Shown: positions 6,497 through 30,739, counted from the stretch's first letter. The stretch: 32,000 nt of DNA from an uncultured Candidatus Saccharibacteria bacterium (GCA_964432405.1 CAYSNH010000001.1:162080-194079); one strand, 5' to 3'. Made by a program: numbers and translations. Notes: generated by a model from the sequence alone, not told the origin.

Positions 6497-6516
6497 CCCC
6501 AGAGTTGCCTCTGGGG
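6497..6516. terminator. bidirectional hairpin between convergent genes
   Basis: CCCCAGAG-ttgc-CTCTGGGG, preceded by an A-run and lying between the stops at 6489 (+) and 6531 (-). Confidence 0.7.
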
Positions 6517-6530
6517 GGCGGCTGACAAGA

Positions 6531-7523
6531 TCAGCCTTTGCTGGCGGTAGCTCCAAGACCGCCGGGTAGTCTTGATGGAGGAAAGACTTCCTCCATCATT
6601 TTTTTACTGACCTCACTTGTGTGAGCCTCAGCCTTGCTCTGGTTAAAAGTGTCAATCTCATTTTGAGCGCTCTTTCTGCCCAAGGTCGGATCCAGGTTGG
6701 GATGGAACTTCCTCCCATTTATGAGCTGAGCATTCTTTTGAAGATAGGCCGCTTTACGAGCTCTCCCCAAATGACCTTTGGTCATGTTGTCGCGAACCTC
6801 TCCAATCATCAGCTCGTCATCTCGGAAGTAGTAGAAATGGTGGCCATGGAAAGGATTGGCTACCAGCTTGTAACCGCGGTCAATAGGCTGTCGGCCAATC
6901 ACAAACGATCCAGTAGTTGCTCTTTGCCCGTTGCGCAAAACAAACAGAGCATCTTCAACATTTCTGTTGACACCAGTAGCGAGAAAGTTCTCATACTTGA
7001 TGACAAAAGCTTCCACTGGTTGAAATCGAGGTGCTGTGTCCGGACAGAAACGGCATTGTTCCATTTCGCCATCAACATGAACTAGGAAGTCCAAGATTTC
7101 TTCATCAAGCTGCTCGACGCGAAGCTTGAGCTCGACAGATTCTTTTGAAGTTCCCATTTCAAGCAGCACTTCTTCAGGGGAGCGTCCTTTGAAAACGGTC
7201 TCCCGACAAACCACTTCATGTGGTTTGAAGTGCTTGTCTTCCTCGATTTTTTTAGCGACGACATCTTGTAGTCGATCGCTAAAAAATTCTCTGATGGGCT
7301 TTGTGTGCTGAACACAGTTAAGCCAAACAAAGTCGATGGGGCTCAAAAGAGTCCCCGGTCCACCAGCCAGCCAATTTCCCACGCGTCTGAGCTCATTGAT
7401 TGGCAAGAAGCCTTTTCTGGCAGTACCAAACTCATCCAGCCTTTCGTTGTACAAGACAAAAGCCTTCTCGGACAGGATACTTGGCCTGTCAATCAATAGA
7501 TCTTTTTTTGAAGTTGTCGTCAT
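6531..7523 (-). CDS. 330-aa soluble ORFan (compositionally atypical cassette A)
   Basis: Long open frame. The track start at 7532 is GTG. I prefer the ATG at 7523, preceded by GGAGAG 9 nt upstream. No TM and no family recognised. R/H/F/C-rich, unlike the K/I/N-rich core proteins. Hand-counted G+C of two 60-nt lines is 45% and 57%. Confidence 0.8.
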   Translation of the reverse strand: MTTTSKKDLLIDRPSILSEKAFVLYNERLDEFGTARKGFLPINELRRVGNWLAGGPGTLLSPIDFVWLNCVQHTKPIREFFSDRLQDVVAKKIEEDKHFKPHEVVCRETVFKGRSPEEVLLEMGTSKESVELKLRVEQLDEEILDFLVHVDGEMEQCRFCPDTAPRFQPVEAFVIKYENFLATGVNRNVEDALFVLRNGQRATTGSFVIGRQPIDRGYKLVANPFHGHHFYYFRDDELMIGEVRDNMTKGHLGRARKAAYLQKNAQLINGRKFHPNLDPTLGRKSAQNEIDTFNQSKAEAHTSEVSKKMMEEVFPPSRLPGGLGATASKG

Positions 7524-7602
7524 GACAAACACTCTCCGTAATAAGGTGCTAAAAATTTTGGGCGGCTAAATTACAATAGCTCTAAAAACCCAATCAGAAA
7601 CT

Positions 7603-7630
7603 ATTTTACACCAAATTTTTTAAATGTCAA
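7603..7630 (-). promoter_or_regulatory. sigma70-like promoter for the 330-aa ORFan
   Basis: On the minus strand, TTGACA (7630-7625), a 16-nt spacer, then TAAAAT (7608-7603), about 75 nt upstream of ATG 7523. Confidence 0.6.
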
Positions 7631-7661
7631 ATAAAAACAGCCCTACAGGGCCATTTAAATG

Positions 7662-7733
7662 TGGGCATGGGAAGGATCGAACTTCCGACCTCGTCTTTAT
7701 CAGAGACGCGCTCTACCACTGAGCTACATGCCC
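7662..7733 (-). tRNA. tRNA-Ile (anticodon GAU)
   Basis: Folded by hand: acceptor GGGCATG/CATGCCC, D arm GCTC-AGTGGTA-GAGC, anticodon arm CGTCT-CTGATAA-AGACG, T arm GGAAG-TTCGATC-CTTCC, discriminator A. No encoded CCA. A weak GCCC-tgta-GGGC hairpin plus T-run follows at 7636-7651. Confidence 0.9.
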
Positions 7734-7754
7734 TAAATTAAACAAGCTAAACAA

Positions 7755-7955
7755 CTATCGTTTTAGTTGCTTAGCTTTATCGAGGTTAAATTTAACAATT
7801 TCTTCTGATTTTGACAAGTCTCCTCCAAATGCCTTGCTAGCTCTATTAGCTAAAAATGACATCGATCGACTGACATAAAAAATTATTAATGCAAAAATAG
7901 TGATGCCAATTATCCAGAAGATCAACTCTTTTTTATTGTGAAAAAACTTTCCCAT
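7755..7955 (-). CDS. small single-pass membrane protein
   Basis: 66-aa ORF with TM LIFWIIGITIFALIIFYV. Overlaps the 3' end of the upstream gene by 23 nt, so likely co-transcribed. Confidence 0.5.
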   Translation of the reverse strand: MGKFFHNKKELIFWIIGITIFALIIFYVSRSMSFLANRASKAFGGDLSKSEEIVKFNLDKAKQLKR

Positions 7956-8454
7956 TGATTATTGATTTAAACTTTTTTTCATCTCCGACCAAGTTAAAGG
8001 AATCAAAGCTGACTACATAAGGACTTCTTTCAATACTACTAACAAAATTTAACCAATTAACAAAAGGGGCGTCAGCAGTTATTGAGAAGCTGAGATAGCC
8101 AGGCTTAGTTTCTGAGCCTAAAACTTCTCTGCCAAAAGAAAACCCTACATCAACATCATTTTTTTTAGCTAGTGAATTTATACTACGAGGAAAATCGATC
8201 AATTTATCTGATATTGGTAGAGTCGTAATTAAAGATAATTTTTCAACGCGCGCCTTTTCAGAATCTTTCTGTAAAGAAGCTAAAGAATCAATAGCCTTAT
8301 AACGAAGAGCTACTTTATTTTTTAATTCAACTACCTTAGCAGTTCTTCTATTTATGTCGGCACGCAATAAAGCAATTAAAATTAACAAGACTACTACAAC
8401 CGCTGCTATAACACTTAAATTAACAGTCATTACTCTTTTGAAGTCTTTTGGCAT
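7933..8454 (-). CDS. membrane-anchored coiled-coil protein with PilO-like architecture (tentative)
   Basis: 173 aa: short basic N-terminus, one TM (VNLSVIAAVVVVLLILIALL), a coiled-coil segment, then a mixed alpha/beta C-terminal domain. This is the topology of type IV pilus PilN/PilO proteins. The call rests on architecture only. Confidence 0.35.
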   Translation of the reverse strand: MPKDFKRVMTVNLSVIAAVVVVLLILIALLRADINRRTAKVVELKNKVALRYKAIDSLASLQKDSEKARVEKLSLITTLPISDKLIDFPRSINSLAKKNDVDVGFSFGREVLGSETKPGYLSFSITADAPFVNWLNFVSSIERSPYVVSFDSFNLVGDEKKFKSIINGKVFSQ

Positions 8455-8473
8455 AAGATTATTATAACACTAT

Positions 8474-9139
8474 ATGACAGCAAATGAGATTACTTATTTA
8501 AAACAATCAGATTCGAATTTTCCTCAATCATTAAGAGAGATTTCTTCTTGTCCAGGTATTTTGTATTTTAAAGGCAATAAAGATTTGTTTAATTATAAAA
8601 AAAAGATTGCCATTGTTGGGACTCGTAAGGCGTCTAAAGCTGGCCAAGCTATTGCTAGTCAATTAGCTAAAGACTTATCTCAGCAAGATGTTGTTGTTGT
8701 AAGTGGGCTTGCTTCAGGAATTGATAGAGCGGCTCATGAAGGTTGTTTAAAAGGTGTTGCCAAGACAATTGCCGTTCTTGGTCACGGCCTTCACTTAATT
8801 TATCCTGATGAGAATAAGGAGTTGGCTTTTCAAATAATACGCAATGATGGGCTGATAATATCAGAGTATCAGTCTGGGCATGCTATAGCTCCTCATCAAT
8901 TTTTAGAGAGGAATCGTTTAATTAGCGGGCTTTGTCAGGGTATAATAATTATCGAAGCTCCTAAGCGCTCTGGCGCACTCAATACCGCTAATCATGCCTT
9001 AGAGCAAAATAGAGACGTCTTCGTTGTTCCTGGCTCAATTCTTGATGCTAATTATACTGGTTCTAATAATCTGATTAAGCAGGGCGCTTATCCAATTACC
9101 TCTGCGCAAGATGTTTTAGATGCCATGAATTTTAAATAA
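8474..9139 (+). CDS. dprA: DNA-processing protein DprA/Smf (core Rossmann domain only)
   Basis: VVSGLASGIDRAAHEG, TIAVLGHGLHLIYPDEN, FLERNRLISGL and IIIEAPKRSGALNTANHALEQNRDVFVVPG are hallmark DprA segments. At 221 aa it lacks the usual terminal extensions. Confidence 0.9.
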   Translation: MTANEITYLKQSDSNFPQSLREISSCPGILYFKGNKDLFNYKKKIAIVGTRKASKAGQAIASQLAKDLSQQDVVVVSGLASGIDRAAHEGCLKGVAKTIAVLGHGLHLIYPDENKELAFQIIRNDGLIISEYQSGHAIAPHQFLERNRLISGLCQGIIIIEAPKRSGALNTANHALEQNRDVFVVPGSILDANYTGSNNLIKQGAYPITSAQDVLDAMNFK

Positions 9140-9201
9140 AATAATTGACAAGTTATTATAAATACATAAAACTTGAATCTTTGTAACAAAATATTTCAAA
9201 T

Positions 9202-11184
9202 ATGAGTAAATTAATTATTGTTGAGAGCCCAACTAAAGCCAAAACTATAAGCAAGTTTTTAGGAAAAGATTATCAATTAGAATCATCTTTTGGTCATATT
9301 CGCGACCTACCTAAAAGCACCTTAGGTATTGATGTTGAGCACAACTTCGAACCAAAGTATCTAGTGCCTGTTAAAGCCAAGAAGGTGGTCAAGCATTTAA
9401 AAGAGTTAGCCAAAAAAAGCGATGGTGTTATTTTAGCTACTGATGAGGACAGAGAGGGAGAAGCTATCGCTTGGCATCTTGCTGAGGCATTAGGTCTAAA
9501 AGGAGAGGAGGTAGAACGTATCGTTTTTCATGAAATTACCAAAAAAGCTATCGAGGATGCTCTTTCGCAGCCGCGTCGAATAGATGTCGACAAAGTGGAT
9601 GCTCAACAAGCTCGCCGAGCTTTAGATAGGATTGTGGGATACAAGCTCTCCCCCTTTCTTTGGAAGAAGGTAGCTCGTCGTCTTTCCGCTGGTCGTGTTC
9701 AGTCGGTGGCTTTGCGCTTGATTGTTGAGCGTGAAGAAGAAATAAGAAAGTTTAAGCCAGAGGAATACTGGAGTATCAATGCTTTATTAAATAAGGATAA
9801 GGATTTTGAAGCTAGCTTAGTTAAAATAGATGGCAAAGCGCTTGATAAGTTTGATGTTAATGAAAATAAAAGCGCTGATAAAATAAAGAAGGAATTAGAA
9901 AAAGAAAAATTTGTTATCAGTAAGGTTGAGAGCAAGGAGACTAAGAGAAATCCCTCTCCTCCTTTCATTACTAGTACTCTCCAGAGAGCGGCTTCTAGTC
10001 GCTTAGGTTTTACAGCTAAGAAAACTATGTTCGTGGCACAGAAGCTCTATGAGAAGGGTCACATTACTTACATGCGTACTGACTCAGTTAATCTTTCTCA
10101 AGAGTCAACTGTTGCTGCAAAGCAGTATTTATTAGAAAAATTTGGTAAAGAGTATGCCTCACAAGCACCGCGCGTCTTTAAGAAGAAAGCCAAAGCAGCT
10201 CAAGAAGCTCATGAGGCAATACGACCAACTAATATTGTTAATGATCCCGAGTCAATTAAATTAGCCGGTGACGAAAAGAAGGTCTATCGAATAATCTGGC
10301 AAAGATTTGTTGGCTCTCAAATGCCACAAGCTATTTTTGCTAGCACTACCGTTGAGATAGAGGCTGGTAAGTACGGTCTTAGAACTACTGGCAGCACTTT
10401 GCAGTTTGATGGTTTCTTAAAAGTTTGGCCTCAAAAATTTGAGGAAAGAGATCTACCACTTCTTAAAGAAAAAGATAAGTTAGTTTTGAAAAAGATTGAT
10501 GCCGATCAGCATTTCACAGAGCCTCCTCCTCGATATAATGAGGCCAGCTTGGTAAAAACTTTAGAAGAGCATGGTATTGGAAGGCCTTCAACTTATGCGC
10601 CAATCATTTCTGTTATTCAGGAGCGTAACTATGTTGAAAAGGAAAATCGTCGTTTTACTCCTACTCAAATAGGAGAGCTCGTTAATAAAATGTTAGTTAA
10701 CCACTTCCCTCGTATTGTGGATATTGATTTTACCGCTAACATGGAAGATAATTTAGACGATGTCGCTGAGGGGAAAAAGGATTGGCATAAGATCATCGCT
10801 ACCTTTTACAAGCCCTTTATTAAAAATTTAGAAATTAAATACGAAGAAGTGAAAAGCGAAAAACCAGAACCAGAAAAAACTGACGAGGTCTGTGACAAGT
10901 GTAGTAAGCCAATGGTTATCCGCGCAGGTCGCTATGGTAAGTTCATGGCCTGCTCAGGATTTCCTGACTGTAAGAATACTAAAAAAGTCGAGGGAGATGA
11001 TTCAGGACCTCAATCAACCGGGTTAAAATGTCCGGATTGCAAAGAGGGTGATGTTATTCAACGCTTTACTAGAAAGGGTAAGCGAAAATTCTGGGGTTGT
11101 TCTAAATATCCAGAATGTGAATATGCTACCTGGGAAGATCCGACTCAGGAAAAGAAAGAAAAAGAAGATAAAAAAGACGCTTAA
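9202..11184 (+). CDS. topA: DNA topoisomerase I
   Basis: Toprim start MSKLIIVESPTKAKTISKFLG, DEDREGEAIAWH, the active-site region ITYMRTDS, and C-terminal C4 zinc ribbons (CDKCSKPM...CSGFPDC; CPDCKEG...CSKYPEC). Confidence 0.97.
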   Translation: MSKLIIVESPTKAKTISKFLGKDYQLESSFGHIRDLPKSTLGIDVEHNFEPKYLVPVKAKKVVKHLKELAKKSDGVILATDEDREGEAIAWHLAEALGLKGEEVERIVFHEITKKAIEDALSQPRRIDVDKVDAQQARRALDRIVGYKLSPFLWKKVARRLSAGRVQSVALRLIVEREEEIRKFKPEEYWSINALLNKDKDFEASLVKIDGKALDKFDVNENKSADKIKKELEKEKFVISKVESKETKRNPSPPFITSTLQRAASSRLGFTAKKTMFVAQKLYEKGHITYMRTDSVNLSQESTVAAKQYLLEKFGKEYASQAPRVFKKKAKAAQEAHEAIRPTNIVNDPESIKLAGDEKKVYRIIWQRFVGSQMPQAIFASTTVEIEAGKYGLRTTGSTLQFDGFLKVWPQKFEERDLPLLKEKDKLVLKKIDADQHFTEPPPRYNEASLVKTLEEHGIGRPSTYAPIISVIQERNYVEKENRRFTPTQIGELVNKMLVNHFPRIVDIDFTANMEDNLDDVAEGKKDWHKIIATFYKPFIKNLEIKYEEVKSEKPEPEKTDEVCDKCSKPMVIRAGRYGKFMACSGFPDCKNTKKVEGDDSGPQSTGLKCPDCKEGDVIQRFTRKGKRKFWGCSKYPECEYATWEDPTQEKKEKEDKKDA

Positions 11185-11201
11185 GAGAAAGCGTCTTTTT
11201 T
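11172..11201. terminator. hairpin terminator spanning the topA stop codon
   Basis: AAAAGACGC-(ttaagagaaa)-GCGTCTTTT followed by a T-run. Lies between convergent genes. Confidence 0.65.
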
Positions 11202-11214
11202 AATCCATTAACTA

Positions 11215-12243: not shown

Positions 12244-12288
12244 GTTGTTTATTGTAGCACAATAAACAACTAGTCAATGTGGATATTA

Positions 12289-14379: not shown

Positions 14380-14380
14380 C

Positions 14381-14923: not shown

Positions 14924-14925
14924 TA

Positions 14926-15186: not shown

Positions 15187-15190
15187 TTTT

Positions 15191-16285: not shown

Positions 16286-16307
16286 AATAATCAGAAAATA
16301 TATCAAA

Positions 16308-16336: not shown

Positions 16337-16360
16337 GCTTTATTTAATAAGATAAAAGAA

Positions 16361-16380
16361 AAGACCCGTTTCCGGGTCCT
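16361..16380 (-). terminator. intrinsic terminator of the 62-aa ORFan
   Basis: The minus strand reads GACCCG-gaaa-CGGGTC followed by TTTTCTTTTAT, immediately after the stop at 16385. Confidence 0.7.
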
Positions 16381-16384
16381 TGAA

Positions 16385-16573
16385 TTAATAATCTTCAGTA
16401 TGACCAATAGCGCTTGAGGGCATGCTAAGGGTTGGGATTATGGGCACAACCCAAGGTTTTGTGCCTTGATCAACGCACGCTCTTCGAGCCTCTTCTCTAG
16501 CTGTCCAACTGGCCCTAATTTTTAAGCATGCAGCGTGAATTTCTTCTGGTGTTGGTGATGGCCTCTCTGTCAT
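16385..16573 (-). CDS. 62-aa ORFan (cassette B)
   Basis: The track ORF starts at a TTG (16657). I prefer the internal ATG at 16573, preceded by AAAGGA 7 nt upstream. Product is MTERPSPTPEEIHAACLKIRASWTAREEARRACVDQGTKPWVVPIIPTLSMPSSAIGHTEDY. It has its own terminator and no recognised family. Confidence 0.55.
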   Translation of the reverse strand: MTERPSPTPEEIHAACLKIRASWTAREEARRACVDQGTKPWVVPIIPTLSMPSSAIGHTEDY

Positions 16574-16685
16574 TTGCGAATCCTTTCTTTTTAAAGTTCT
16601 ATAATCTCTCAAAGAGACGTGTTCATATATAATAGAACAAAACAATGAAAAAAGCAACTTGTTTTACATCAAAAAAAGTGCTAGA

Positions 16686-17560: not shown

Positions 17561-17561
17561 T

Positions 17562-21268: not shown

Positions 21269-21275
21269 TTTTTAA

Positions 21276-21770
21276 ATGCCTCAATTTTTATCACACATAG
21301 TTCCTCAGTGTACGGGAAGATTATTCCCTAACAATATAGAAAGACTGTGTACTTTTTGTGACTTAATAAAGATGCTTGATAATATAGTTAAATTTTTAGC
21401 TGGTCTGGCTCCCTTTTTAGCTATCATTCTTATAATTTGGGGAGCCTTCCTTGTCATTACAGCCGGCGGATCTTCTGATAGATTGTCTAGTGGTAAAAAA
21501 GTTATTCAAGCTGCTGTCGTTGGTCTAGCCATCGTACTTGGAGCTTGGGTTATAGTTAGTACAGTATTTCTCATCATTACTGGCGGCAATAGATTTTATG
21601 GCGCTCCATTGCCTTGGCATTCTATTCGCTGCACTCAACTTAACACCCCTTCTAAACCTCGATCTCAATCACTAGGGCCAGGTAGGCATGGTGATGTTAG
21701 TAGCGCACAAGAAGCTAGAGAATTTGGCTATAGTGAAGAGCATATAAGAATGATTTATCCGGAAGAATAG
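21276..21770 (+). CDS. TrbC/VirB2-like (T4SS-type) pilin paralogue 1, Cys-motif N-terminus
   Basis: N-terminal IVPQCTG...CTFCDL motif, then a two-helix hairpin LAIILIIWGAFLVITAGGSSDRLSSGKKVIQAAVVGLAIVLGAWVIV shared with the next two genes. An extra 60-aa hydrophilic tail follows. Confidence 0.65.
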   Translation: MPQFLSHIVPQCTGRLFPNNIERLCTFCDLIKMLDNIVKFLAGLAPFLAIILIIWGAFLVITAGGSSDRLSSGKKVIQAAVVGLAIVLGAWVIVSTVFLIITGGNRFYGAPLPWHSIRCTQLNTPSKPRSQSLGPGRHGDVSSAQEAREFGYSEEHIRMIYPEE

Positions 21771-21804
21771 TCACTTACTATAATAATCTGGTATTATTAA
21801 TATA

Positions 21805-22230
21805 ATGAAAGTAATCTTACTAAAACTTCTTCAAGTTCAGACAGCTTTTGCTAGAAATCACTATATGATGATTGATGATTCTGGTGGTGGTCAGATTTCT
21901 CCAGTTGGAGCCGGACAGATTTCTCCAGTTGGAGCCGGACAGATTTCTCCAGTTGGCGGCGGCGATATAGTTTTTACCAGCCCTTTAGGCGGGTATAGTA
22001 ATCTGCAGCTCATCCTTGATAGAGTCATTAATGGCTTACTTATTTTAGCTACCCCAGTAGTGGTTATTATGATTCTTTGGGCTGGTTATCAATTTATAGT
22101 ATCTGGCGGTAGTCCAGATAAGATAACTAAGGCTCGTCAGACTATTCTTTGGGCTGCTGTTGGTTATGGTATTTTGCTTCTATCAAGAGGAATTACCTTT
22201 ATAATTCAACAGTTATTAACAGGATACTAA
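21805..22230 (+). CDS. TrbC/VirB2-like pilin paralogue 2 with an N-terminal (GQISPVGA)x3 repeat
   Basis: Signal-like MKVILLKLLQVQTAFA, the repeat, then VVVIMILWAGYQFIVSGGSPDKITKARQTILWAAVGYGILLLS, the same two-TM hairpin with the SGG...K loop. Confidence 0.7.
   Translation: MKVILLKLLQVQTAFARNHYMMIDDSGGGQISPVGAGQISPVGAGQISPVGGGDIVFTSPLGGYSNLQLILDRVINGLLILATPVVVIMILWAGYQFIVSGGSPDKITKARQTILWAAVGYGILLLSRGITFIIQQLLTGY
21889..21960 (+). repeat. 3 x 24-bp in-frame tandem repeat
   Basis: Units are ggtcagatttctccagttggagcc, ggacagatttctccagttggagcc and ggacagatttctccagttggcggc. They encode GQISPVGA, GQISPVGA and GQISPVGG. Confidence 0.95.
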
Positions 22231-22300
22231 TTGTTGAAACTAAACAATCGGTTAAAATAGTAATGAAAGGTCGTTAAGGAAATCTTATTGTATTAAATTA

Positions 22301-22663: not shown

Positions 22664-22684
22664 AATATTTCTTAACGTAATAAA

Positions 22685-22716
22685 AAAGCCCCTGCTATTA
22701 ACTAGCAGGGGCTTTG
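22685..22716. terminator. bidirectional hairpin terminator
   Basis: AAAAAA-GCCCCTGCTA-ttaac-TAGCAGGGGC-TTT, between the convergent stops at 22663 (+) and 22743 (-). Confidence 0.75.
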
Positions 22717-22742
22717 TCGTTCACATACCCTCTATTCTCTGT

Positions 22743-23237
22743 TTAGGGCGATAGCAGTGTACGAACAGTAGCTGCACCCTCTCCACGCAATTGGAAGGTT
22801 GTTAAGGACCCTAACTCCAGGATCTTACCATTTTGTAGATCACTCCACTTTAACAGAAAGATCCGATCTCTATCAGGATCAAGTATCTCTACCTGACCAT
22901 CTGGAGGAGGGACGATCTGTATGTATTGGAATAGTCCTGGTTGCAGCTCAATGGGCGAAGACCACTCTTCGTTGTCCAACTTTACTTTCGTAGAAGTTGG
23001 CTTTGAAGAACTTCCTACAAACAAGACTTCTTGGTTGAACGGAGTCTTCTCAGAGGTTTTTTGAATCTGCTGACTCGGACTTTCCGAGGTTTCAAAAAAC
23101 TCACTCGTTTCCTTCCAGATACCTGGAAGGTAGTTGGCTGCCATCATAAGACAGCAGATGCAGAGCATGGCTCCAATAAGCCATTTTGCGCCAGCTTTTA
23201 CGCCTCCAAGAGGGGTCGTTGTTGCAGTATCGGCCAT
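22743..23237 (-). CDS. 164-aa single-pass membrane protein with beta-rich C-terminal domain (cassette C, gene 3)
   Basis: The track start at 23297 would read through a terminator hairpin. I prefer ATG 23237, preceded by AAGGAGG 5 nt upstream. Sequence begins MADTATTTPLGG..., TM WLIGAMLCICCLMMAANYL, and the C-terminus is predicted beta-rich. No family recognised; a role analogous to short NfeD is only a hypothesis. Confidence 0.7.
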   Translation of the reverse strand: MADTATTTPLGGVKAGAKWLIGAMLCICCLMMAANYLPGIWKETSEFFETSESPSQQIQKTSEKTPFNQEVLFVGSSSKPTSTKVKLDNEEWSSPIELQPGLFQYIQIVPPPDGQVEILDPDRDRIFLLKWSDLQNGKILELGSLTTFQLRGEGAATVRTLLSP

Positions 23238-23252
23238 GACGGCCTCCTTTCC

Positions 23253-23285
23253 AATAAAAAAGGACAGTGTTAATTTACTGTCCTT
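23253..23285 (-). terminator. intra-operon hairpin (attenuator/terminator) between the SPFH gene and the downstream gene
   Basis: The minus strand reads AAGGACAGT-aaattaac-ACTGTCCTT-TTTTATT. It lies about 25 nt after the stop at 23311 and immediately before the SD of the next gene. Confidence 0.6.
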
Positions 23286-23310
23286 AATATAGCACATTTA
23301 GCTATATTTG

Positions 23311-24396
23311 TCAATCAGAGCCAGAGTCAGCAAGATCTGGTCTGAGAATAGTTGTTGCGGACTCACTACCATCAATCGCCACAGTTTGGTGTCTGCTTTG
23401 ACCATTGATAGCTAGAGCCAAATTCATTCTTGTAGCTTCAGGAATCTCTTCAAATCCCTTTAGCCGACTCATTGTTTCTAGGATAGCCGCCGTTTCTTTT
23501 CCAGTTCGTTGGCGCTTTTCCATAGTTTTTTGGAATTCTTCAGTCCATTTAACGCTGGATAGAGCAAAATGATCGATGTCGATAGCATATCTTTCTTCGA
23601 CATCAGAGTTTTTATCTTTTTCAACAAGCTCTTTATCAAGACACTCTTTTATTTCTCGGTAAAAGAGTTTGTAGAAGGCGATCCTGGATTCTGGAGGGAT
23701 GCAGCAGGCATCGGTAAGAATCTGGCTGTCGTGATCTTCATTGTACTTTGCAACCTTTTGATCAAAAGACGCCTCATCCTCTTTCCTGATTTCTTCGAAA
23801 TCACGATGAGGAATAATTTCAAGGCATAGGATGCAGTTGATGACCAACTGTATGATTTCACGATCTTGTATAAATGCCGTGTAATTGTGACGTCCGGCAA
23901 TGATACCAATCTCGCTACTAATTAAATCTCCCAAGCCCTGCTTGATAGCGGCTTCAGACAGCCCCGCGAATTTAGAGGCCCTTTGGTCGTCAACTCTGTA
24001 TTGAGCGGATCCTTCAAGCTCAGCCTCTATCTCGTCTAGAGTTGTAAAGCTTTCTTTTATCCCAAGGCTTTTAACAGAGGCATCGTGGATATAGACTCTT
24101 TGCCATATCCAACACCAATGAATTCCTTCTCTCACATTCCTGCCAGTTCTTTCGCCAAAGACTCTGTATTCACCGAAGTGAATAGAGGGTACTTTGATGA
24201 TCGAGCAGTAAATGATAAAAATCACCATTCCACTCCACCCCATCCAGGGCATAGTTATTCCCAGCAGATCACTTCCCGTTTGTGAAGAATGATATGCTAG
24301 AGCTCCTAATCCTATCAGAGCGCTAATTAGCAGGACTTTCAAAAAATTGTCCAACAACCAGGTTGTTAATCGATAATCATCTTCCAAGTTACTCAT
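23311..24396 (-). CDS. divergent SPFH/band-7 (stomatin/prohibitin-like) membrane protein (cassette C, gene 2)
   Basis: 361 aa with two N-terminal TMs (VLLISALIGLGALAY, WSGMVIFIIYCSII). The segment VPSIHFGEYRVFGERTGRNVREGIHWCWIWQRVYIHDASVKSLGIKESFTTLDEIEAELEGSAQYRV fits the SPFH core pattern. The C-terminus is long and helical. SD GGGAGG lies 6 nt before the ATG. Confidence 0.65.
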   Translation of the reverse strand: MSNLEDDYRLTTWLLDNFLKVLLISALIGLGALAYHSSQTGSDLLGITMPWMGWSGMVIFIIYCSIIKVPSIHFGEYRVFGERTGRNVREGIHWCWIWQRVYIHDASVKSLGIKESFTTLDEIEAELEGSAQYRVDDQRASKFAGLSEAAIKQGLGDLISSEIGIIAGRHNYTAFIQDREIIQLVINCILCLEIIPHRDFEEIRKEDEASFDQKVAKYNEDHDSQILTDACCIPPESRIAFYKLFYREIKECLDKELVEKDKNSDVEERYAIDIDHFALSSVKWTEEFQKTMEKRQRTGKETAAILETMSRLKGFEEIPEATRMNLALAINGQSRHQTVAIDGSESATTILRPDLADSGSD

Positions 24397-24521
24397 TTCA
24401 ACCTCCCTTTCTTTTGGGCTTTCTTTCTTTCCCGTTTTTCTCTACGCTTCTCCTTTTTCTTTCTCTTCCTTGCCTCTCTTTCCTGGTTCTTCTCTGTTCC
24501 ATGAGGATTTCGTTTAACCAT
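24393..24521 (-). CDS. candidate 42-aa highly basic peptide (cassette C, gene 1)
   Basis: Hand translation: MVKRNPHGTEKNQEREARKRKKKEKRREKRERKKAQKKGRLK*. AGGAGA lies 7 nt before the ATG (24521), and the stop TGA overlaps the SPFH ATG (ATGA). It could instead be a purine-rich leader. Confidence 0.4.
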   Translation of the reverse strand: MVKRNPHGTEKNQEREARKRKKKEKRREKRERKKAQKKGRLK

Positions 24522-24597
24522 CTTTATTCTCCTAAATAAGGATACTTGTCAAAGTTCTGATTTGTGATATTATATTATAAAAAAAGAAACCCGTAAA

Positions 24598-24681
24598 GGG
24601 CGAGTGGCGGAATTGGTAGACGCGATAGGTTTAGGACCTATTGAGCTTACGCTCGTGGGAGTTCGAGTCTCCCCTCGCCCA
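24598..24681 (+). tRNA. tRNA-Leu (anticodon UAG), class II
   Basis: Acceptor GGGCGAG/CTCGCCC, anticodon arm ATAGG-TTTAGGA-CCTAT, 15-nt variable arm TGAGCTTACGCTCGT, T arm GGGAG-TTCGAGT-CTCCC, discriminator A. No CCA. Confidence 0.9.
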
Positions 24682-24706
24682 CACTTTTAAATGTTCTATT
24701 TTTATC

Positions 24707-25585: not shown

Positions 25586-25652
25586 ATTATAAGTCTATCA
25601 TATATATAGCAGCAGTTGACTAAATACTAATTTAATTTTATTATATATTACT

Positions 25653-27491
25653 ATGAAAATGTTGTATAAGAATATTATTTGGGCCATCACCACTCTTTTA
25701 GTGGTTGCGATAGCCTTTTCCGCGGTTTCTGGTTCGTTTACTAAACCAACCTCTCTAACCTTAGATGAGCTGGTTACTAAAATTAATAAACAAGAGGTCT
25801 CCAAAATTATTGTTGCTGGAGAAAAACTAGAGATCGATCTAAAAGATGATACAAAAGCTGTGGCTCGTAAGGAGGCTGGCTTAGGTTTGAGTGAGACTTT
25901 AAAGAACTATGGTGTTGAATCAGGTCAATTAAGCGGAATCTCTTTAGAAATTAAAGATGAGTCTGGCTTGAAGTTTTGGGCTAGCATTCTTATCCCCTCC
26001 CTTTTACCTATTATAATCATTCTTTTTATTTTTTGGTTAGTGTTTAAAAATGCTAAACAAGGAGCTTCTCAAGCCTTTACTTTCGGCAAGGCTAATATTC
26101 GTCTTTTTGCTCCACAGAAAAAAGACAAAATCACCTTTAAAGATGTTGCTGGTCTAGAAGAAGCTAAACAAGAATTACAAGAAGTGGTTCAGTTCTTAAA
26201 AAATCCAAAAAAATTCTTAGATATTGGTGCTAAGATTCCTCGAGGTGTTCTATTAATGGGATCTCCAGGGACTGGTAAGACTTTATTGGCTAGAGCTGTT
26301 GCTGGTGAAAGTAATGTGCCGTTTTTCTCTATCTCAGCTTCAGAGTTTGTAGAGATGTTTGTTGGTGTGGGTGCTTCTCGAACTCGTGATGCTTTTGCTA
26401 CTGCTAAAAAAGCTGCCCCGGCTATTCTCTTTATTGATGAGATCGATGCCATTGGTCGTCAACGAGGCGCGGGTCTTGGTGGAGGTCATGACGAAAGAGA
26501 GCAAACTCTTAATCAGATCTTAGTCGAGTTAGACGGCTTTGAAAGAGATACACAAGTTATCATTATTGCTGCTACTAACCGACCAGATGTTCTTGATAAA
26601 GCTTTGCTACGACCAGGTCGTTTTGATCGACAGGTTGTTTTAGATCTTCCTGATATCAGAGATCGTGAGGCTATCCTAAAAATTCACATGTTAGATAAGC
26701 CAGTTGAAGAAAGTATTGATATTAAAAAGGTTGCTGTTAGAACTCCTGGCTTTTCTGGTGCTGATTTAGCTAACCTGGTTAATGAAGCTGCTATATTAGC
26801 TGCTCGTAATGATAAAAAGATTGTTTCCGAACAAGACTTGCTCGAGTCAGTAGAAAAGGTCTTGCTTGGTCCAGAGCGTCGTAGCCGAGTCATTACAGAC
26901 AAAGAGCGTAAAATAACCGCTTACCACGAAGCTGGCCATGCTTTAGTGGCTGCTAGCTTAGAGAACTCTGACCCAGTTCATAAGGTGTCTATTATTAGTC
27001 GTGGTTTTGCTGGTGGTTACACTCTTAAGCTTCCCATTGAAGAGGCTAGCCTCAAAACTCGTTCTCAATTCTTAACCGACCTAGCTACTATGATGGGTGG
27101 TTATGCCGCTGAAGAGATAATTTTTGGTGAGATGAGTACTGGTGCTTCCAACGACCTTAAGCAAGCTTCTAGTCTGGCTCGAAAACTAGTTACCAAATAT
27201 GGTATGAGTGAAAAGCTAGGCCCAATCGCTTATGGAGAAGGTAGTGATATGGTTTTCTTAGGCAGAGACATAGCATCTGACAAAAACTATTCTGAAGATG
27301 TAGCAGCTAAGATTGATGCTGAGGTTAAAAGCTTTATCACTCACGCTTACGAGACTGCTAAGAAGGTTTTAGAAGATCGCAAAGAAGTTCTTCAAGCTGT
27401 TACCGACGCCCTTCTTCAGAAGGAGGTCCTTGAACAAGAAGAGTTTTATGGTATATTGGAACCTTTCCAATTAAACAAGCTTGCGGTATAA
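25653..27491 (+). CDS. ftsH: ATP-dependent zinc metalloprotease FtsH
   Basis: Two TMs, Walker [18 protein letters not shown], Walker [13 protein letters not shown] region and zinc motif HEAGHAL. Confidence 0.97.
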
Positions 27492-27503
27492 TAAATGCCG
27501 CAA

Positions 27504-27576
27504 GGGCCTGTAGCTCAATGGTTAGAGCGCCAAGCTTATACCTTGGTGGTTCCTGGTTCGAATCCAGGCAGGCCCA
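27504..27576 (+). tRNA. tRNA-Ile (anticodon UAU)
   Basis: Acceptor GGGCCTG/CAGGCCC, D arm GCTC-AATGGTTA-GAGC, anticodon arm CCAAG-CTTATAC-CTTGG (positions 34-36 = TAT), T arm CCTGG-TTCGAAT-CCAGG, discriminator A. The body resembles Ile2-type tRNAs. No CCA. Confidence 0.85.
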
Positions 27577-27578
27577 CA

Positions 27579-27650
27579 GGGCGCTTAGCTCAGTGGTAGA
27601 GCGACTCGTTTACACCGAGTAGGTCGGGGGTTCGATACCCTCAGCGCCCA
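27579..27650 (+). tRNA. tRNA-Val (anticodon UAC)
   Basis: Acceptor GGGCGCT/AGCGCCC, anticodon arm ACTCG-TTTACAC-CGAGT, T arm GGGGG-TTCGATA-CCCTC, discriminator A. Starts 2 nt after the preceding tRNA. Confidence 0.9.
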
Positions 27651-27664
27651 CAATTGCTTTTTAC

Positions 27665-27693
27665 TTGACAATTAAAATTTGTTGGTTTATGAT
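27665..27693 (+). promoter_or_regulatory. near-consensus sigma70 promoter of the 97-aa ORFan
   Basis: TTGACA (27665-27670), 17-nt spacer, TATGAT (27688-27693). Confidence 0.65.
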
Positions 27694-27761
27694 ATAAAAA
27701 CATCTTTGCCGGTGTTGGTGAAGATTTTTTAGTTCTTTTTAAGGAAGGAGATCTGTCTAGG

Positions 27762-28055
27762 ATGCTAACTAGAACGGAGTCTACACAAATCACGTTGGTC
27801 CCTGGTGGAGAAGCTTTGGTTTTGGATGTAGGCAAACACAAGCTCGCACTTCATCTCGATTCTGAGAGCAGAAGGATGTGGGTTGGAGACGTCAATGGTC
27901 GTCTGGATGATGGACAAATGGTTTTGTTTCGATTCTTTAAGGTACCGACTGAAAATCATGATGTCTGGATCATGCTCAGAAACAGTTTAAGAGTAGAGGA
28001 TTTCACCGAAGAAGTTCAGCACTTGGTAGACTACTTTAACAGTCTGTCAGCATGA
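27762..28055 (+). CDS. 97-aa soluble ORFan (cassette D, gene 1)
   Basis: ATG preceded by AAGGAAGGAGA (10-nt spacing). It has its own promoter and its own terminator. No family recognised. Confidence 0.7.
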   Translation: MLTRTESTQITLVPGGEALVLDVGKHKLALHLDSESRRMWVGDVNGRLDDGQMVLFRFFKVPTENHDVWIMLRNSLRVEDFTEEVQHLVDYFNSLSA

Positions 28056-28079
28056 TCTTCAGGTTCCTGTTCTTTCCCC

Positions 28080-28108
28080 GCGCCTTGCTTAACAGCAGGC
28101 GCTTTTTT
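28080..28108 (+). terminator. intrinsic terminator
   Basis: GCGCC(T)TGCT-taac-AGCAGGCGC followed by TTTTTT. Confidence 0.75.
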
Positions 28109-28112
28109 ATTG

Positions 28113-28142
28113 TTGACTAATAATACAATATTCTTTTATAAT
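28113..28142 (+). promoter_or_regulatory. near-consensus sigma70 promoter of the M16 peptidase gene
   Basis: TTGACT (28113-28118), 18-nt spacer, TATAAT (28137-28142). Confidence 0.65.
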
Positions 28143-28186
28143 CTTTTCTTAGAGCTCATTAACAAACCGAATAAAGGAGTTGGTTT

Positions 28187-29491
28187 ATGAAAGACTGTTA
28201 CAAAGTTCACTGTGGTCGTCTTCAAAATGGCTTAAGGTTTTATAGTCAAAATGATAGTAGTGAATCAAAGGAGTTGGCCTTGATTGTTATCATGGCTGGC
28301 TCTATTCACGATCCTCCTAACCGTAGAGGTCTCTCACATCTAACGGAGCATGTTATATGCGCTGAATCAAAACAGCATAATCCTCAGCAGGTTGAATCGA
28401 TTATGCACAGAACTATTGGCTATAGTGATTTAGCTTGGATTACTACTGGTAGGACAGCTACTACATTTGGTCCAATGGACAGTATAAAAAAATCTCACAA
28501 TCGAAACCTCTTCAACATGTTTTCTTGCATGATTAAGGAACCGGTTATTTCTAAATCAGTCTGTGATTCAGAGAAAGCTAGTGTCAATCAAGAACATTTT
28601 CTGATGGCACGAGATTCGATGGTAGATTGGATAGAGGATCTATTCTGCGAGCTCCTTTTTCCTAAAAGGTTTACTGCTCGAAATCCAATCGATGGCCGAA
28701 TGAGCGATGTTCGCCGCTCCTCTCTTCTTGATATCAATAGGCATATTCAAAGATACTATGTCCCTAAGAATGCGTTCGTTGTTTATTTGGGACCTAGTCA
28801 TTCGGAAGTTGCAAGGTTGATTGAAAGAGAGTTGGGAGATTGGGTTAATCAGCCGAGGCATTATAATCCTAGTTTTCGAACTAGGTACAATGCTGATTCG
28901 TACGTTCTTAAAAAGCCAAAAAGGAAGGTCGTTGTTCGGCCAGGTATTCATCAGTATCATGTTGCTATAGGCTTCCCTACCGAAACCTATCTTAGTAAAG
29001 ATGCTGAGGCTATCGATATCCTTGCTAGAATTCTTTCTAGACGGATGTATGGAGAGATAAGGACTAAGAACCAGTCTTGGTCAGGAGGTTCTTATCGATC
29101 ACCGGTATTAACAGAAAGGACTTTTGCTCACGGATTATTTTGTTTTCACTTTGCTACCATTGACCAGAGTTTTGTAAGAGTCGGAATAAGAGCCTTTCGC
29201 GATCAATGCCGTTTGCTATGCGATCAGCTTGTTAGTAGGTCGGAGGCTGAAGATTGTATTGGTTTTATGTACGACAGTGAGTTCATGGAGGTTTTTAAAA
29301 GATGTCCTTCCTTGCTCATGGATGAAATTGTAGCAAGCGTTTCAAATGGAGATCTTGATTTAACAAGGTTGCATGAAAGGGGAGAGAGGATCAACAAATA
29401 CCTCAGAAGAGGAGGTCGTGCCAAATTGAGAGAGGTGGCTCAAAAGTATCTTTCTCAGAATAGTGCTTGTGTTGTAATCAAGCCATCTTAA
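28187..29491 (+). CDS. M16 (pitrilysin/insulinase) family zinc peptidase, solitary, no signal peptide (cassette D, gene 2)
   Basis: Inverted zinc motif HxxEH in GLSHLTEHVICAE near the N-terminus, with a downstream acidic residue in SVNQEHF. 434 aa is the typical two-domain M16 size. SD AAGGAG lies 8 nt before the ATG. R/C/H-rich composition. Confidence 0.75.
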   Translation: MKDCYKVHCGRLQNGLRFYSQNDSSESKELALIVIMAGSIHDPPNRRGLSHLTEHVICAESKQHNPQQVESIMHRTIGYSDLAWITTGRTATTFGPMDSIKKSHNRNLFNMFSCMIKEPVISKSVCDSEKASVNQEHFLMARDSMVDWIEDLFCELLFPKRFTARNPIDGRMSDVRRSSLLDINRHIQRYYVPKNAFVVYLGPSHSEVARLIERELGDWVNQPRHYNPSFRTRYNADSYVLKKPKRKVVVRPGIHQYHVAIGFPTETYLSKDAEAIDILARILSRRMYGEIRTKNQSWSGGSYRSPVLTERTFAHGLFCFHFATIDQSFVRVGIRAFRDQCRLLCDQLVSRSEAEDCIGFMYDSEFMEVFKRCPSLLMDEIVASVSNGDLDLTRLHERGERINKYLRRGGRAKLREVAQKYLSQNSACVVIKPS

Positions 29492-29498
29492 CAAAGAC

Positions 29499-29522
29499 CA
29501 GACCCCAATCGGGGTCTTTTTT
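29499..29522 (+). terminator. intrinsic terminator of the M16 gene
   Basis: AGACCCC-aatc-GGGGTCT followed by TTTTTATTTTT. Confidence 0.8.
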
Positions 29523-29528
29523 ATTTTT

Positions 29529-29580
29529 AAGTGTCTACCACGGCCTAGATGGTAGACACTTTGGTAGACAGTGGTAGACA
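29529..29580. repeat. cluster of four TGGTAGACA 9-mers (one inverted, three direct)
   Basis: TGTCTACCA at 29532-29540. TGGTAGACA at 29550-29558, 29562-29570 and 29572-29580. The first two copies form a 12-bp-stem hairpin, AAGTGTCTACCA-(9 nt)-TGGTAGACACTT. Confidence 0.9.
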
Positions 29581-29618
29581 CCCCCTGTTTTTTAAAATAT
29601 TGTAGATTTTATCGAGCT

Positions 29619-29699
29619 ATCGGGTTTTCAAAAATTGACAAATATCATTTTTTAATGTCAAACATGGGTCTTTTTTTAGTGTTTTTTGGAAAACCCGAT
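29619..29699. repeat. nested inverted repeats (possible structured RNA or protein-binding site)
   Basis: Outer arms ATCGGGTTTTC (29619-29629) and GAAAACCCGAT (29689-29699). Inner arms TTGACA (29635-29640) and TGTCAA (29656-29661). Confidence 0.8.
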
Positions 29700-29757
29700 A
29701 TGCCCATAAAACCTATAAGAATTCGCGATTTTGCCAAAAACAGCTATTTTCGGTGGT

Positions 29758-29781
29758 AGACGTCTACCATCCTTACGTAAA
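29758..29781. repeat. left arm of a 24-bp perfect inverted repeat flanking the LAGLIDADG-like gene
   Basis: AGACGTCTACCATCCTTACGTAAA. Its outer end forms the 16-bp palindrome TGGTAGACGTCTACCA (29754-29769). Confidence 0.95.
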
Positions 29782-29798
29782 AAAAATAAAAAATTCCC

Positions 29799-30203
29799 CT
29801 ACTTTTTCCAATAACCTGTCCTATGTAGTCTGTAAAATAGCTTATAAAGCTTTGGAACAGCAGGATCCTTCCCTATTTTATTGAGCCAGCTAATAAATTC
29901 CTTTCCCTTACTCCCCTTTAATTGGTTATAAAAGAATGGAATTATTATGTTTTTTATTTGATTGAAATCCCTTACAGCTATTTTTGCCGAACTTTTTCTT
30001 TTTGCCCCATCTTTTTTATAAGGATCGTGTACGTATATTTTATTCTTTAAACCTAGATATAGCTTAACTTCTTTAACCATTTCTTTATCTTTAGCCTCCA
30101 TTACAAAATAAAAGGCAGGGATCTTTTTTGTCCCATTGCCGGAAAAAGTAAAAATTGCCTTACTTTCGGCAATTCCTAGTATGTAGTCTTTTGATAATTT
30201 CAT
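29799..30203 (-). CDS. single-motif LAGLIDADG-like homing endonuclease homologue (134 aa, degenerate motif)
   Basis: N-terminal DYILGIAESKAIFTF aligns with the LAGLIDADG helix (compare GFIDAEGCF), but the second acidic position is Lys. NIIIPFFYNQLKGSKGKEFISWLNKI matches the conserved IxxFxxYxLxGxKxxxFxxW block of LAGLIDADG_1 proteins. AT-rich and without an SD, like the core genes. Confidence 0.55.
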   Translation of the reverse strand: MKLSKDYILGIAESKAIFTFSGNGTKKIPAFYFVMEAKDKEMVKEVKLYLGLKNKIYVHDPYKKDGAKRKSSAKIAVRDFNQIKNIIIPFFYNQLKGSKGKEFISWLNKIGKDPAVPKLYKLFYRLHRTGYWKK

Positions 30204-30226
30204 TTACGTAAGGATGGTAGACGTCT
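30203..30226. repeat. right arm of the 24-bp perfect inverted repeat
   Basis: TTTACGTAAGGATGGTAGACGTCT, the exact reverse complement of 29758-29781. Followed by the near-palindrome TGGTAGACGTCTGCCA (30215-30230). Confidence 0.95.
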
Positions 30227-30243
30227 GCCATTGCTGCGTAATT

Positions 30244-30274
30244 ATAAAAATGTTTCACTGTGAAACATTTTTAT
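30244..30274. promoter_or_regulatory. 31-bp perfect palindrome in a divergent intergenic region (candidate operator)
   Basis: ATAAAAATGTTTCAC-T-GTGAAACATTTTTAT, between the divergent starts at 30203 (-) and 30377 (+). Confidence 0.5.
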
Positions 30275-30376
30275 TATAAGCTATATAAAATATATAAACA
30301 AATTTGTTTTATTCCGTTTACTTATATAAAGTTTAGTAAAGTACTTTGAAACTCGTTGATTGCTTAGGAGGAACTT

Positions 30377-30706
30377 ATGTTATTCGAAAATCATCGTGAA
30401 GAGATGCTGAGGCTCATAAAGGGCTTGGGTGAATTACCAAAAGAAAGTTACCAAACTAATATCACGATTTTTATCAAAGCTGATGTGGAGACAGGCGAAG
30501 GATTCTCCGCTTCCACTTTGATTGAGATTATAAAGGAAGAGTTTGGCGATACGCCCTTAGATCAGATTAGGATTGGCACTACTACAAGTCTGAGGATAGA
30601 AGGCGACAGTGATTCCCAAACCCCTTTTATTTGCCTGATTGGCTCAGTAGATGAAGAGAGTGATGAATCAGAATCATGGGATCAAAGTCCTCCTTCCATG
30701 AACTAA
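30377..30706 (+). CDS. 109-aa strongly acidic ORFan (cassette E)
   Basis: ATG preceded by TAGGAGGAA (5-nt spacing). D/E-rich C-terminus VDEESDESESWDQ. Followed by a hairpin terminator. No family recognised. Confidence 0.7.
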   Translation: MLFENHREEMLRLIKGLGELPKESYQTNITIFIKADVETGEGFSASTLIEIIKEEFGDTPLDQIRIGTTTSLRIEGDSDSQTPFICLIGSVDEESDESESWDQSPPSMN

Positions 30707-30711
30707 AAAAA

Positions 30712-30739
30712 CACCCCCTTATTAAATGGGGGGCTTTTA
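30712..30739. terminator. bidirectional hairpin terminator
   Basis: CCCCC-ttattaaat-GGGGGG flanked by an A-run and TTTTATTT, between the convergent stops at 30706 (+) and 30752 (-). Confidence 0.65.

Follow-up and report, generated by a model that had tools for sequence, protein, structure and literature searches.

Why should eight open reading frames (ORFs) in a compact bacterial locus carry strong Shine-Dalgarno (SD) motifs when the genes around them do without? The question is raised by a 32,000-nt stretch of DNA (the window) deposited under an uncultured Candidatus Saccharibacteria bacterium (GCA_964432405.1, CAYSNH010000001.1:162080-194079), in which the eight ORFs lie in five short blocks, A to E, between positions 6497 and 30739. 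Genes here fall into two classes by their translation signals; the blocks keep their positions and expression signals across related species, show mosaic alleles and replacement between strains and, in one case (a peptidase M16 gene), a clean insertion or deletion. We read this, with a probability of about 0.6 for the explanation as a whole, as two modes of translation initiation in one genome, the SD-led mode belonging to accessory loci that stay at fixed sites while their interiors are exchanged. An earlier, sequence-only reading of the window had recognised the two classes and likened the blocks to phage morons; it overlooked leaderless or coupled starts as the likely reason for the missing SDs, and the hypervariability of the blocks.

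The separation of the two classes is sharp. In a gene set of 34, we scored the 22 nt upstream of 32 starts for duplex energy with a typical 16S rRNA 3' end (the host's own was not seen). Seven block ORFs gave -9.6 to -17.0 kcal/mol and the other 25 genes, reported earlier to lack SDs, +1.5 to -6.6 kcal/mol, ranges that do not overlap; the eighth block ORF, a 42-aa frame starting at 24521, fell outside this scoring and has AGGAGA 6 nt before its ATG. All eight motifs named by the sequence-only reading are present, 5-10 nt before the ATGs at 7523, 16573, 24521, 24396 and 23237 (minus strand) and at 27762, 28187 and 30377 (plus strand). They are purine-rich, complementary to CCUCC and kept in orthologues, and their retention points to continued use by the ribosome. 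An annotation-free scan for an SD 5-mer followed by an ATG and an ORF of at least 40 codons returned 13 starts, against 1.9 +/- 1.2 in shuffled sequence; seven are block ORFs (the eighth, at 7523 with GGAGAG, is outside that 5-mer set), and the remaining six are attributable to chance, being internal in-frame ATGs of real genes or starts within other genes. Candidate SDs for murC and the M23 gene were rejected, as GGAGG there encodes internal glycine pairs (GIGGIG in MurC, LGGP in M23).

Composition follows the same division. The fraction of G+C at third codon positions (GC3) is 0.33-0.48 in block genes vs 0.21-0.34 in the rest (Mann-Whitney p=2e-7), and block proteins contain more R+H+C+W (p=0.0035) and less K+I+N (p=0.0033), as the sequence-only reading had described for the proteins. 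Since block GC3 exceeds the local intergenic G+C (0.21 for core intergenic DNA), either import or selection is indicated; fast evolution by itself does not raise GC3 in the SD-less genes pilO, dprA and hyp122, which remain at 0.22-0.30. The products are mostly ORFans, as had been proposed: Pfam assigns domains to two of them (SPFH/Band-7 and peptidase M16), and the remainder count as ORFans by Pfam, PHROGs and PADLOC, with no Pfam match even at E=5. No block protein resembles another, and neither the shared donor nor the shared function that had been floated for them emerged. All the same, the ORFs appear to encode real proteins, because the ratio of nonsynonymous to synonymous divergence (dN/dS) is 0.11-0.27 wherever dS is finite, the HxxEH motif of the M16 protein is conserved and so are the family motifs of the block A protein; every block ORF also has homologues of conserved length in related genomes.

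The blocks are built as independent transcription units. The three near-consensus sigma-70-type promoters quoted previously were recovered, namely TTGACA-N16-TAAAAT in block A (7630-7603, minus strand) and, in block D, TTGACA-N17-TATGAT (27665-27693, plus) and TTGACT-N18-TATAAT (28113-28142, plus); two more were found in block C, TTGACA-N17-TATATT (23314-23286, minus) and TTTACG-N17-TATAAT (24597-24569, minus). Leaders are about 40-85 nt, and the long ones contain no Rfam element at E<=1. Every block transcription unit closes with an intrinsic terminator, directly after the stop codon for seven of the eight ORFs, the exception being the 42-codon ORF (c42), which is followed by the SPFH gene. 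The claim that terminators concentrate in the blocks thus stands in part: each unit has one, but core operons have them as well (for example 11202-11169 and 7777-7744), and the concentration arises partly because block genes are short independent units. At 0.25-2 kb each, the blocks make up about 23% of the 6497-30739 span but two-thirds of its intergenic DNA, and four of the five lie near tRNA genes, as had been described.

How, then, do the core genes start? Orthologous core genes of distant relatives also lack SDs. In leaderless genes the -10 box lies about 6-7 nt before the ATG, and a -10-like hexamer is found 6-8 nt before the ATG of seven uncoupled core genes of the window (hyp260, pilO, dprA, hyp342, pilin2, ftsH and dksA); hexamers upstream of SD-less genes are seen, for example, at 2884-2895, 8455-8466 and 12244-12256. 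Nine other core genes have a start that overlaps the preceding stop or lies no more than 7 nt from it. Strict -10 hexamers were also counted upstream of 1,041 uncoupled SD-less ORFs in SD-poor loci, most of them from other Patescibacteria: 54 end exactly 6 nt before the ATG, against a background of about 7 per position. Core genes without an SD are therefore probably of two kinds: leaderless ones, whose -10 box sits 6-9 nt ahead of the ATG, and translationally coupled ones. Because block leaders are about 40-85 nt long and core -10 boxes sit close to the ATG, the split in SD usage can be read as leaderless or coupled genes on one side and leadered, SD-led genes on the other. Searches of the literature on SD or leaderless initiation in Patescibacteria yielded no description of an SD-led accessory class or of a leaderless signature.

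Comparison with related species gives the blocks a history. Close relatives (loci L087, L088, L169-L173, L177 and L178) were found via protein homologues of A_333, SPFH and M16. Core proteins of these species are 82-97% identical to those of the window, whereas identity falls to 56-62% for A_333, 41-43% for B_62, 36-38% for C_164, 49-73% for SPFH, 54-56% for D_97 (in L172 and L177), 61% for M16 (in L177 and L178) and 37-47% for E_109. Even so, every block homologue keeps its place relative to the flanking genes: in species with core dS of roughly 0.5-1.5, positions are identical for seven of the eight ORFs, and blocks A, B, C and E and D_97 are present in all related genomes sampled, M16 being absent from L172. 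The expression signals (SDs, promoters, leaders and terminators) have been retained, many of them almost without change, around coding interiors that diverge. The synteny comparison proposed in the sequence-only reading, which held that blocks fixed at the same positions with indistinguishable codon usage would tell against it, has therefore come out both ways: A, B, C, D_97 and E are fixed, but their codon usage is distinguishable, and GC3 stays raised in most relatives' copies.

Between two strains, L169 and L171, the core DNA is about 99% identical, and yet identity drops with sharp edges to 52-82% in the 3' two-thirds of the SPFH gene and to 60-73% in block B; n192, an SD-less ORF described below, is likewise sharply bounded at 55-73%, the L171 allele being 57% identical. 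In blocks B and C, sharp-edged divergence of 25-48% in strains that are otherwise 99% identical implies recombinational allele replacement. The SPFH gene is a mosaic of allele segments: over its N-terminal 70 alignment columns L169 groups with L171 (95%), and over the remainder the window groups with L169 (83%), an incongruence among four genomes that again points to recombination. At four-fold sites under identical amino acids, divergence is 0.48-0.63 in blocks vs 0.33-0.41 in core genes; the L169 SPFH gene taken whole has a core-like value (0.24), most of it being the same allele as in the window. Relaxed selection alone would not suffice to raise synonymous divergence above that of the flanks, and older imported alleles would. 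These alignments demonstrate replacement-type islets at blocks B and C and at n192, but do not demonstrate them at A, D or E.

One unit alone, the M16 cassette of block D, behaves as a clean presence/absence element. It occupies 28109-29527 (plus strand), with its promoter (given above), the SD AAGGAG (28174-28179), a coding sequence (CDS; 28187-29491) that matches Pfam M16 and M16_C and has an intact, conserved HLTEH zinc motif, and a terminator with T-run (29500-29517). Against L172, which lacks it, the cassette forms an indel of about 1.45 kb with precise junctions, running from its own -35 box to its own terminator, with CTTTTTTATT at both junctions. The L177 copy is exceptional in its low GC3 (0.28) and weakened SD. 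Homologues of 51% identity occur at unrelated sites in other Patescibacteria, and their composition matches that of the surrounding patescibacterial contigs, at 42-48% G+C. One, which has its own terminator and a very strong SD, lies between nusA and the rplO-secY operon. Another, in L174 (8973-11891), is flanked by two ORFs of 265 and 158 aa that both match the ZIP transporter family, an arrangement that looks like a zip gene split by the cassette.

Among the rival explanations, the one that survives best is that the block genes form a native, vertically inherited and condition-specific regulon that depends on SDs, like the SD-led genes of Bacteroidota, and that evolves fast in place under diversifying or relaxed selection. 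The conserved positions and the strong conservation of promoters, leaders and SDs are what such a regulon would show; the leader hairpins with T-runs could be attenuators, and the M16 copies of two related species are each other's closest relatives. The sharp-edged replacements in nearly identical strains and the mosaic SPFH gene are left unexplained, as are the GC3 values above intergenic G+C, given that other fast-evolving SD-less genes are A+T-rich, and the scattered sites of M16 in other genomes. We regard this explanation as possible but clearly the weaker one.

Somewhat less probable still is that the blocks are recently acquired morons, perhaps from a phage or from one donor, that retain the donor's SDs and composition. 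It was here that the sequence-only reading had leaned. The autonomous architecture and atypical composition speak for it, as do the clean M16 indel with different sites in other genomes and the published estimate that up to 13% of patescibacterial genome length stems from horizontal gene transfer, mostly between Patescibacteria (PMC12455944). Recency, however, is hard to reconcile with seven ORFs shared at identical positions by species as diverged as these, and a single source with block proteins that are mutually dissimilar and vary in GC3. Nor did a phage source appear: PHROGs gave one marginal match for SPFH (E=0.005) and nothing else for block proteins, tblastn of block proteins against 50,697 phage records (INPHARED) gave no hits, and IMG/VR no matches. 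A phage or plasmid origin was accordingly rejected, the neighbours being housekeeping genes with no phage genes among the flanks. What remains of the moron comparison is the autonomous architecture and the cassette-like behaviour of M16.

In the explanation we prefer, housekeeping genes would have no need of SDs, their transcripts being leaderless or their translation coupled within tight operons. The eight SD-led ORFs would be lineage-restricted accessory genes in independent leadered units, each unit with a terminator and mostly with a sigma-70-type promoter; a leadered mRNA would require an SD, and selection would maintain it. Placed at operon boundaries, mostly beside tRNA genes, and fixed across related species, the sites would act as hot spots at which homologous recombination, anchored in the conserved flanks (tRNA genes, promoter and leader, terminator), swaps in diverged alleles, with occasional gain or loss as for M16. 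A wider pool of G+C-richer Patescibacteria is the probable source of the imported DNA, which could enter by natural transformation; the window encodes DprA, a PilO-like protein and three pilins of the type IV secretion system (T4SS) type, and T4SS genes stand just left of it. A bolder extension, which we offer tentatively and think doubtful as a general statement, is that the units are 'expression sockets', that is, fixed promoter-leader-SD-terminator frames, often tRNA-anchored, into which alleles or cassettes from a phylum-wide pool are swapped, with SD-dependent initiation as a separate channel of translation for this flexible gene set alone, in a genome whose core is leaderless or coupled. 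If so, the accessory gene repertoire, possibly one for interaction with hosts or phages, would be recognisable simply by its SDs.

Is the association seen elsewhere? A weaker form of it recurs. In 85 other SD-poor loci, mostly patescibacterial, with 1,410 ORFs from a simple ORF caller, SD-led ORFs had a GC3 of +0.030 relative to the locus median, compared with -0.007 for the others (p=3e-6). In L120 one such ORF reaches a GC3 of 0.75 in a background of 0.31, and in L011 G+C-rich SD-led ORFs stand right after an ftsH/tRNA-Ile/tRNA-Val cluster, the hot spot of block D. Almost all of these SD-led G+C-rich ORFs are ORFans; qualifying ORFs amount to about 3% elsewhere vs roughly 22% of the window's genes. 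When 43 of them were compared with one another and with the block proteins, a single homologous pair appeared, in two other loci. An ORFan family of 294-300 aa with 31% identity (E=2e-35), a strong SD and GC3 of about 0.75 was noticed at L120 3293-4177 (minus strand) and L031 613-1515, in two unrelated patescibacterial genomes whose median GC3 is 0.31 and 0.45; with no Pfam, phage or plasmid match, it is a candidate mobile gene.

Several points weigh against our explanation and should be set beside it. There is some circularity in the link between SD and GC3 across loci, given that G+C-rich DNA is more apt to contain G-rich motifs, and the ORF caller behind it was crude. Neither the window nor the 180 loci retrieved contain an rRNA gene, so that the host's anti-SD was never seen. 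Four core genes (topA, M23, pcrA and the gene of a metallo-beta-lactamase fold protein) have neither an SD nor a convincing -10 box at 6-9 nt; because they fit neither mode, the rule that a leader implies an SD is not absolute. Hypervariability is not limited to SD-led genes, since SD-less n192 varies too, as does a LAGLIDADG-like ORF. For blocks A and E and D_97, a persistent G+C excess at old sites would call for repeated import or for selection, with fast evolution in situ as the alternative. The close relationship of the window and L177 copies of M16 fits vertical descent with fast divergence equally well. Finally, the searches brought up no donor, and every block family found was in Patescibacteria-like contexts.

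Two further explanations fare much worse. The SD and sigma-70 signals might serve expression in the cell of a bacterial host, reached through the T4SS in the manner of T-DNA; the T4SS genes to the left (PrgI, TraC-like and VirB4/TraG-like, just outside the window) and the three T4SS-type pilin genes that abut block C are circumstantial support. We consider this very improbable: border repeats, a relaxase and oriT are all missing, the blocks are spread over 24 kb rather than forming one transferable segment, and the products include ordinary membrane and protease types. The slimmest chance of all belongs to an artefact of assembly chimeras or of spurious ORFs behind G-rich motifs, for which the metagenomic source and the several short ORFans might speak, against matching assemblies over the block boundaries, syntenic homologues in related species, the dN/dS values, two products with Pfam domains and the roughly two SD-ATG-ORF combinations expected by chance.

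The assembly evidence is as follows. JGI contig Ga0117920_1000017 (JGI 3300009108) is identical to the window over the 18.7 kb compared, and three other assemblies of this strain (one from ENA, two from Logan) show 0-1 differences; these four take in the boundaries of blocks B-E. A fifth, scaffold_37 from ENA, extends over the left 9.3 kb, where block A lies, with 7 differences, none inside block A. Because independent assemblies match the window across block boundaries, the chimeric assembly that the sequence-only reading had wanted checked is excluded.

The individual blocks differ in detail. Block A (6497-7630, minus strand) lies directly downstream of tRNA-Ile(GAU) (7661-7733) and has a conserved leader of about 80 nt, the SD GGAGAG (7537-7532), the CDS of A_333 (6531-7523; 330 aa) and a terminator (6516-6497); promoter, leader and SD are kept in three species. 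A_333 has only two close homologues among 5.8 billion proteins, both at the same syntenic site, and its family comprises only 8 clusters among 1.84 billion representatives, with a dN/dS of 0.11-0.21 and strongly conserved motifs. AlphaFold2 gave a confident model from 9 sequences (predicted local distance difference test, pLDDT, 77; predicted template-modelling score, pTM, 0.71) and a pLDDT of 31 from 3 sequences; no fold in PDB or BFVD matched at E<=0.001. A role in a known defence system was rejected for the block genes, PADLOC having given no more than a marginal PDC-S04 match for A_333. The convergent M23 (plus) and A_333 (minus) genes have a common terminator zone (6497-6598), where a hairpin resembling an M23 terminator (6573-6598) falls within the 3' end of the A_333 coding sequence.

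Block B (16360-16600, minus strand) is the smallest in outline, with the SD AAAGGA (16586-16581), the 62-aa CDS of B_62 (16385-16573) and a terminator (16381-16360). In L169 and L171 the SD, the N-terminal codons and the terminator are kept, and the 3' half of the CDS is hypervariable.

Block C, also on the minus strand, begins with a unit (24393-24597) that abuts tRNA-Leu(UAG) (24598-24682) and contains a promoter, an invariant leader, the SD AGGAGA (24533-24528) and c42 (24393-24521), a small and very Lys/Arg-rich basic ORF. The 3' end of c42 holds the SD of the downstream SPFH gene (GGGAGG, 24407-24402), whose start it overlaps (TGAAATG). Its length and start are kept in L169 and L171 at 60% identity, and its product may act as a small basic protein or as a leader peptide with a regulatory role. 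The SPFH/Band-7 membrane protein (23311-24396; 361 aa; Pfam Band_7, E=8e-10) has six homologues besides a near-identical representative, all from related species. The second unit (22685-23314) has a promoter that overlaps the SPFH stop, the SPFH terminator hairpin (23285-23260), the SD AAGGAGG (23249-23243), the CDS of C_164 (22743-23237), which encodes a membrane anchor and a conserved C-terminal domain, and a terminator (22715-22685). Across four genomes its regulatory DNA and terminator are nearly invariant and the protein is 35-40% identical. The succession of promoter, hairpin and T-run before the SD (23260-23314) has no Rfam match; since the predicted transcription start lies inside the 5' arm of the hairpin, transcripts of C_164 itself would escape the SPFH terminator. 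On the other side of tRNA-Leu, n192 (an A+T-rich ORFan of 192 aa) stands between xer and the tRNA in L169 (2964-3542), L172 (8621-9199) and L171 (1-570); it is absent from the window, where the gap between xer and tRNA-Leu is 24 nt. In the neighbouring pilin genes, three 24-nt tandem repeats in the second pilin (21882-21962) encode GQISPVGA, and indels occur (21600-21900 vs L169) between species and also between two 99%-identical strains.

The first unit of block D (27665-28108, plus strand) follows tRNA-Ile(UAU) and tRNA-Val(UAC) (27504-27651) and consists of its promoter, a leader hairpin with T-run (27702-27725), the SD AAGGAAGGAGA (27741-27751), the CDS of D_97 (27762-28055) and a terminator with T-run (28084-28099). 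The hairpin lies entirely within the leader and is a possible attenuator, with no Rfam match. The tRNA-Ile (27504-27577; anticodon UAU), next to tRNA-Val(UAC) and just after ftsH, recurs in L011, L120, L129, L169 and L172, distant relatives included, which suggests that AUA may be decoded without the usual lysidine-modified CAU tRNA.

Block E (30330-30733, plus strand) has a conserved leader, the SD AGGAGG (30366-30371), the CDS of E_109 (30377-30706), an acidic ORFan, and a terminator (30715-30733). Between it and the M16 cassette lies the LAGLIDADG-like ORF (29799-30203, minus), with weak homing-endonuclease matches in Pfam and PADLOC, 86% identical in L177 and only 45% in L172. Inverted repeats of 34 nt (29754-29787 and 30197-30230), which include the palindrome TGGTAGACGTCTACCA, enclose the ORF. 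The motif GGTAGAC occurs ten times in the window, against 1.9 expected for the whole window, and seven of these copies cluster in 29531-30233. Nearby, a non-coding stretch of about 150 nt (29590-29750) is 77-83% identical to L172, above the genes on both sides, and holds a TTGACA box and a 40-nt imperfect inverted repeat (29595-29634, 29684-29723); it might be a small RNA or a regulatory region. Further on, murC starts 7 nt past tRNA-Thr(UGU) (31165-31246), so that the 5' end of its mRNA could arise by 3' processing of the tRNA and be nearly leaderless.

As to the host, it is a patescibacterium from groundwater, Paceibacteria/Parcubacteria-like, with a tiny genome. The closest FtsH matches in GTDB are Patescibacteria (labelled Paceibacterota, Jorgensenbacteria or 'Patescibacteria group') at no more than 67% identity, the flanks of these relatives being without block homologues, and a metagenome scan with FtsH as query returned relatives at 63% identity or less only. 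The window is compact, with about 1.9 kb of intergenic DNA in total; its core genes include rsmA, pcrA, topA, dprA, pnp, rpsO, an S1-domain protein gene, gyrA, ftsH, xer and murC, alongside the three T4SS-type pilin genes, a PilO-like gene and five tRNAs. Gene callers disagree on several of its start codons.

Patescibacteria make up a large share of bacterial diversity, are uncultured and have genomes rich in unknown genes. If an SD reliably marks exchanged genes, it would offer a cheap, annotation-free way to find accessory genes, possibly for symbiosis or defence; start-codon calls could be corrected, and there would be a route to study how foreign genes enter streamlined genomes without disturbing compact operons. 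It predicts that these ribosomes serve leaderless and SD-led initiation alike. Possibly this is a general rule for Patescibacteria, and a testable one; if the pattern fails genome-wide, the window is merely a locally dense patch of small genomic islets.

How does the locus compare with systems already described? Bacteroidota have SD-poor genomes with a minority of SD-led genes, and Actinobacteria and Deinococcus are rich in leaderless genes. The likeness lies in the absence of SDs from most genes and the strong, conserved SD of a minority; unlike in Bacteroidota, that minority consists here of accessory, G+C-richer and hypervariable ORFans rather than of particular housekeeping genes. Phage morons are autonomous promoter-gene-terminator units in lambdoid and other prophages. 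As predicted from sequence, most block units share that architecture, being single genes or gene pairs of atypical composition placed between conserved genes, with a terminator and mostly a recognisable promoter of their own, and the M16 unit is present or absent between relatives as a moron would be. They differ in being chromosomal, with neither phage genes nor phage homologues, and in that all but one of the eight ORFs hold the same position from species to species, their variation taking the form of allele replacement or fast divergence, not of presence or absence.

The integron cassette model was rejected, as the M16 cassette is joined at terminator T-tracts, and GTTGACT departs from the attC core GTTRRRY; the window ORFs scanned with Pfam include no IntI-type gene. 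Single-gene units gathered at preferred sites recall integron cassettes, but the blocks have no intI or attC and bring their own promoters and terminators. The tRNA-targeting island model was rejected as well, with no tRNA-derived direct repeats among the repeat families listed for the window and xer, its only recombinase gene (for a tyrosine recombinase), being a core gene that shows 92-94% conservation in related species and pairs with ftsH both there and in L007.

Closer to the mark are tRNA-associated islands and replacement flexible islands, with which the blocks share operon boundaries beside tRNAs and a deviant composition. Compared with tRNA islands they are tiny, and they carry no integrase and no duplicated tRNA 3' end. 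With replacement islands they share very divergent alleles at one conserved locus in close strains and sharp recombination edges, and they depart from them in that the expression signals are kept while the interior changes and that the class is marked by a distinct mode of translation initiation. The best-supported description of the blocks is thus a variant of genomic islets or replacement islands, that is, fixed, autonomously expressed and SD-led accessory loci.

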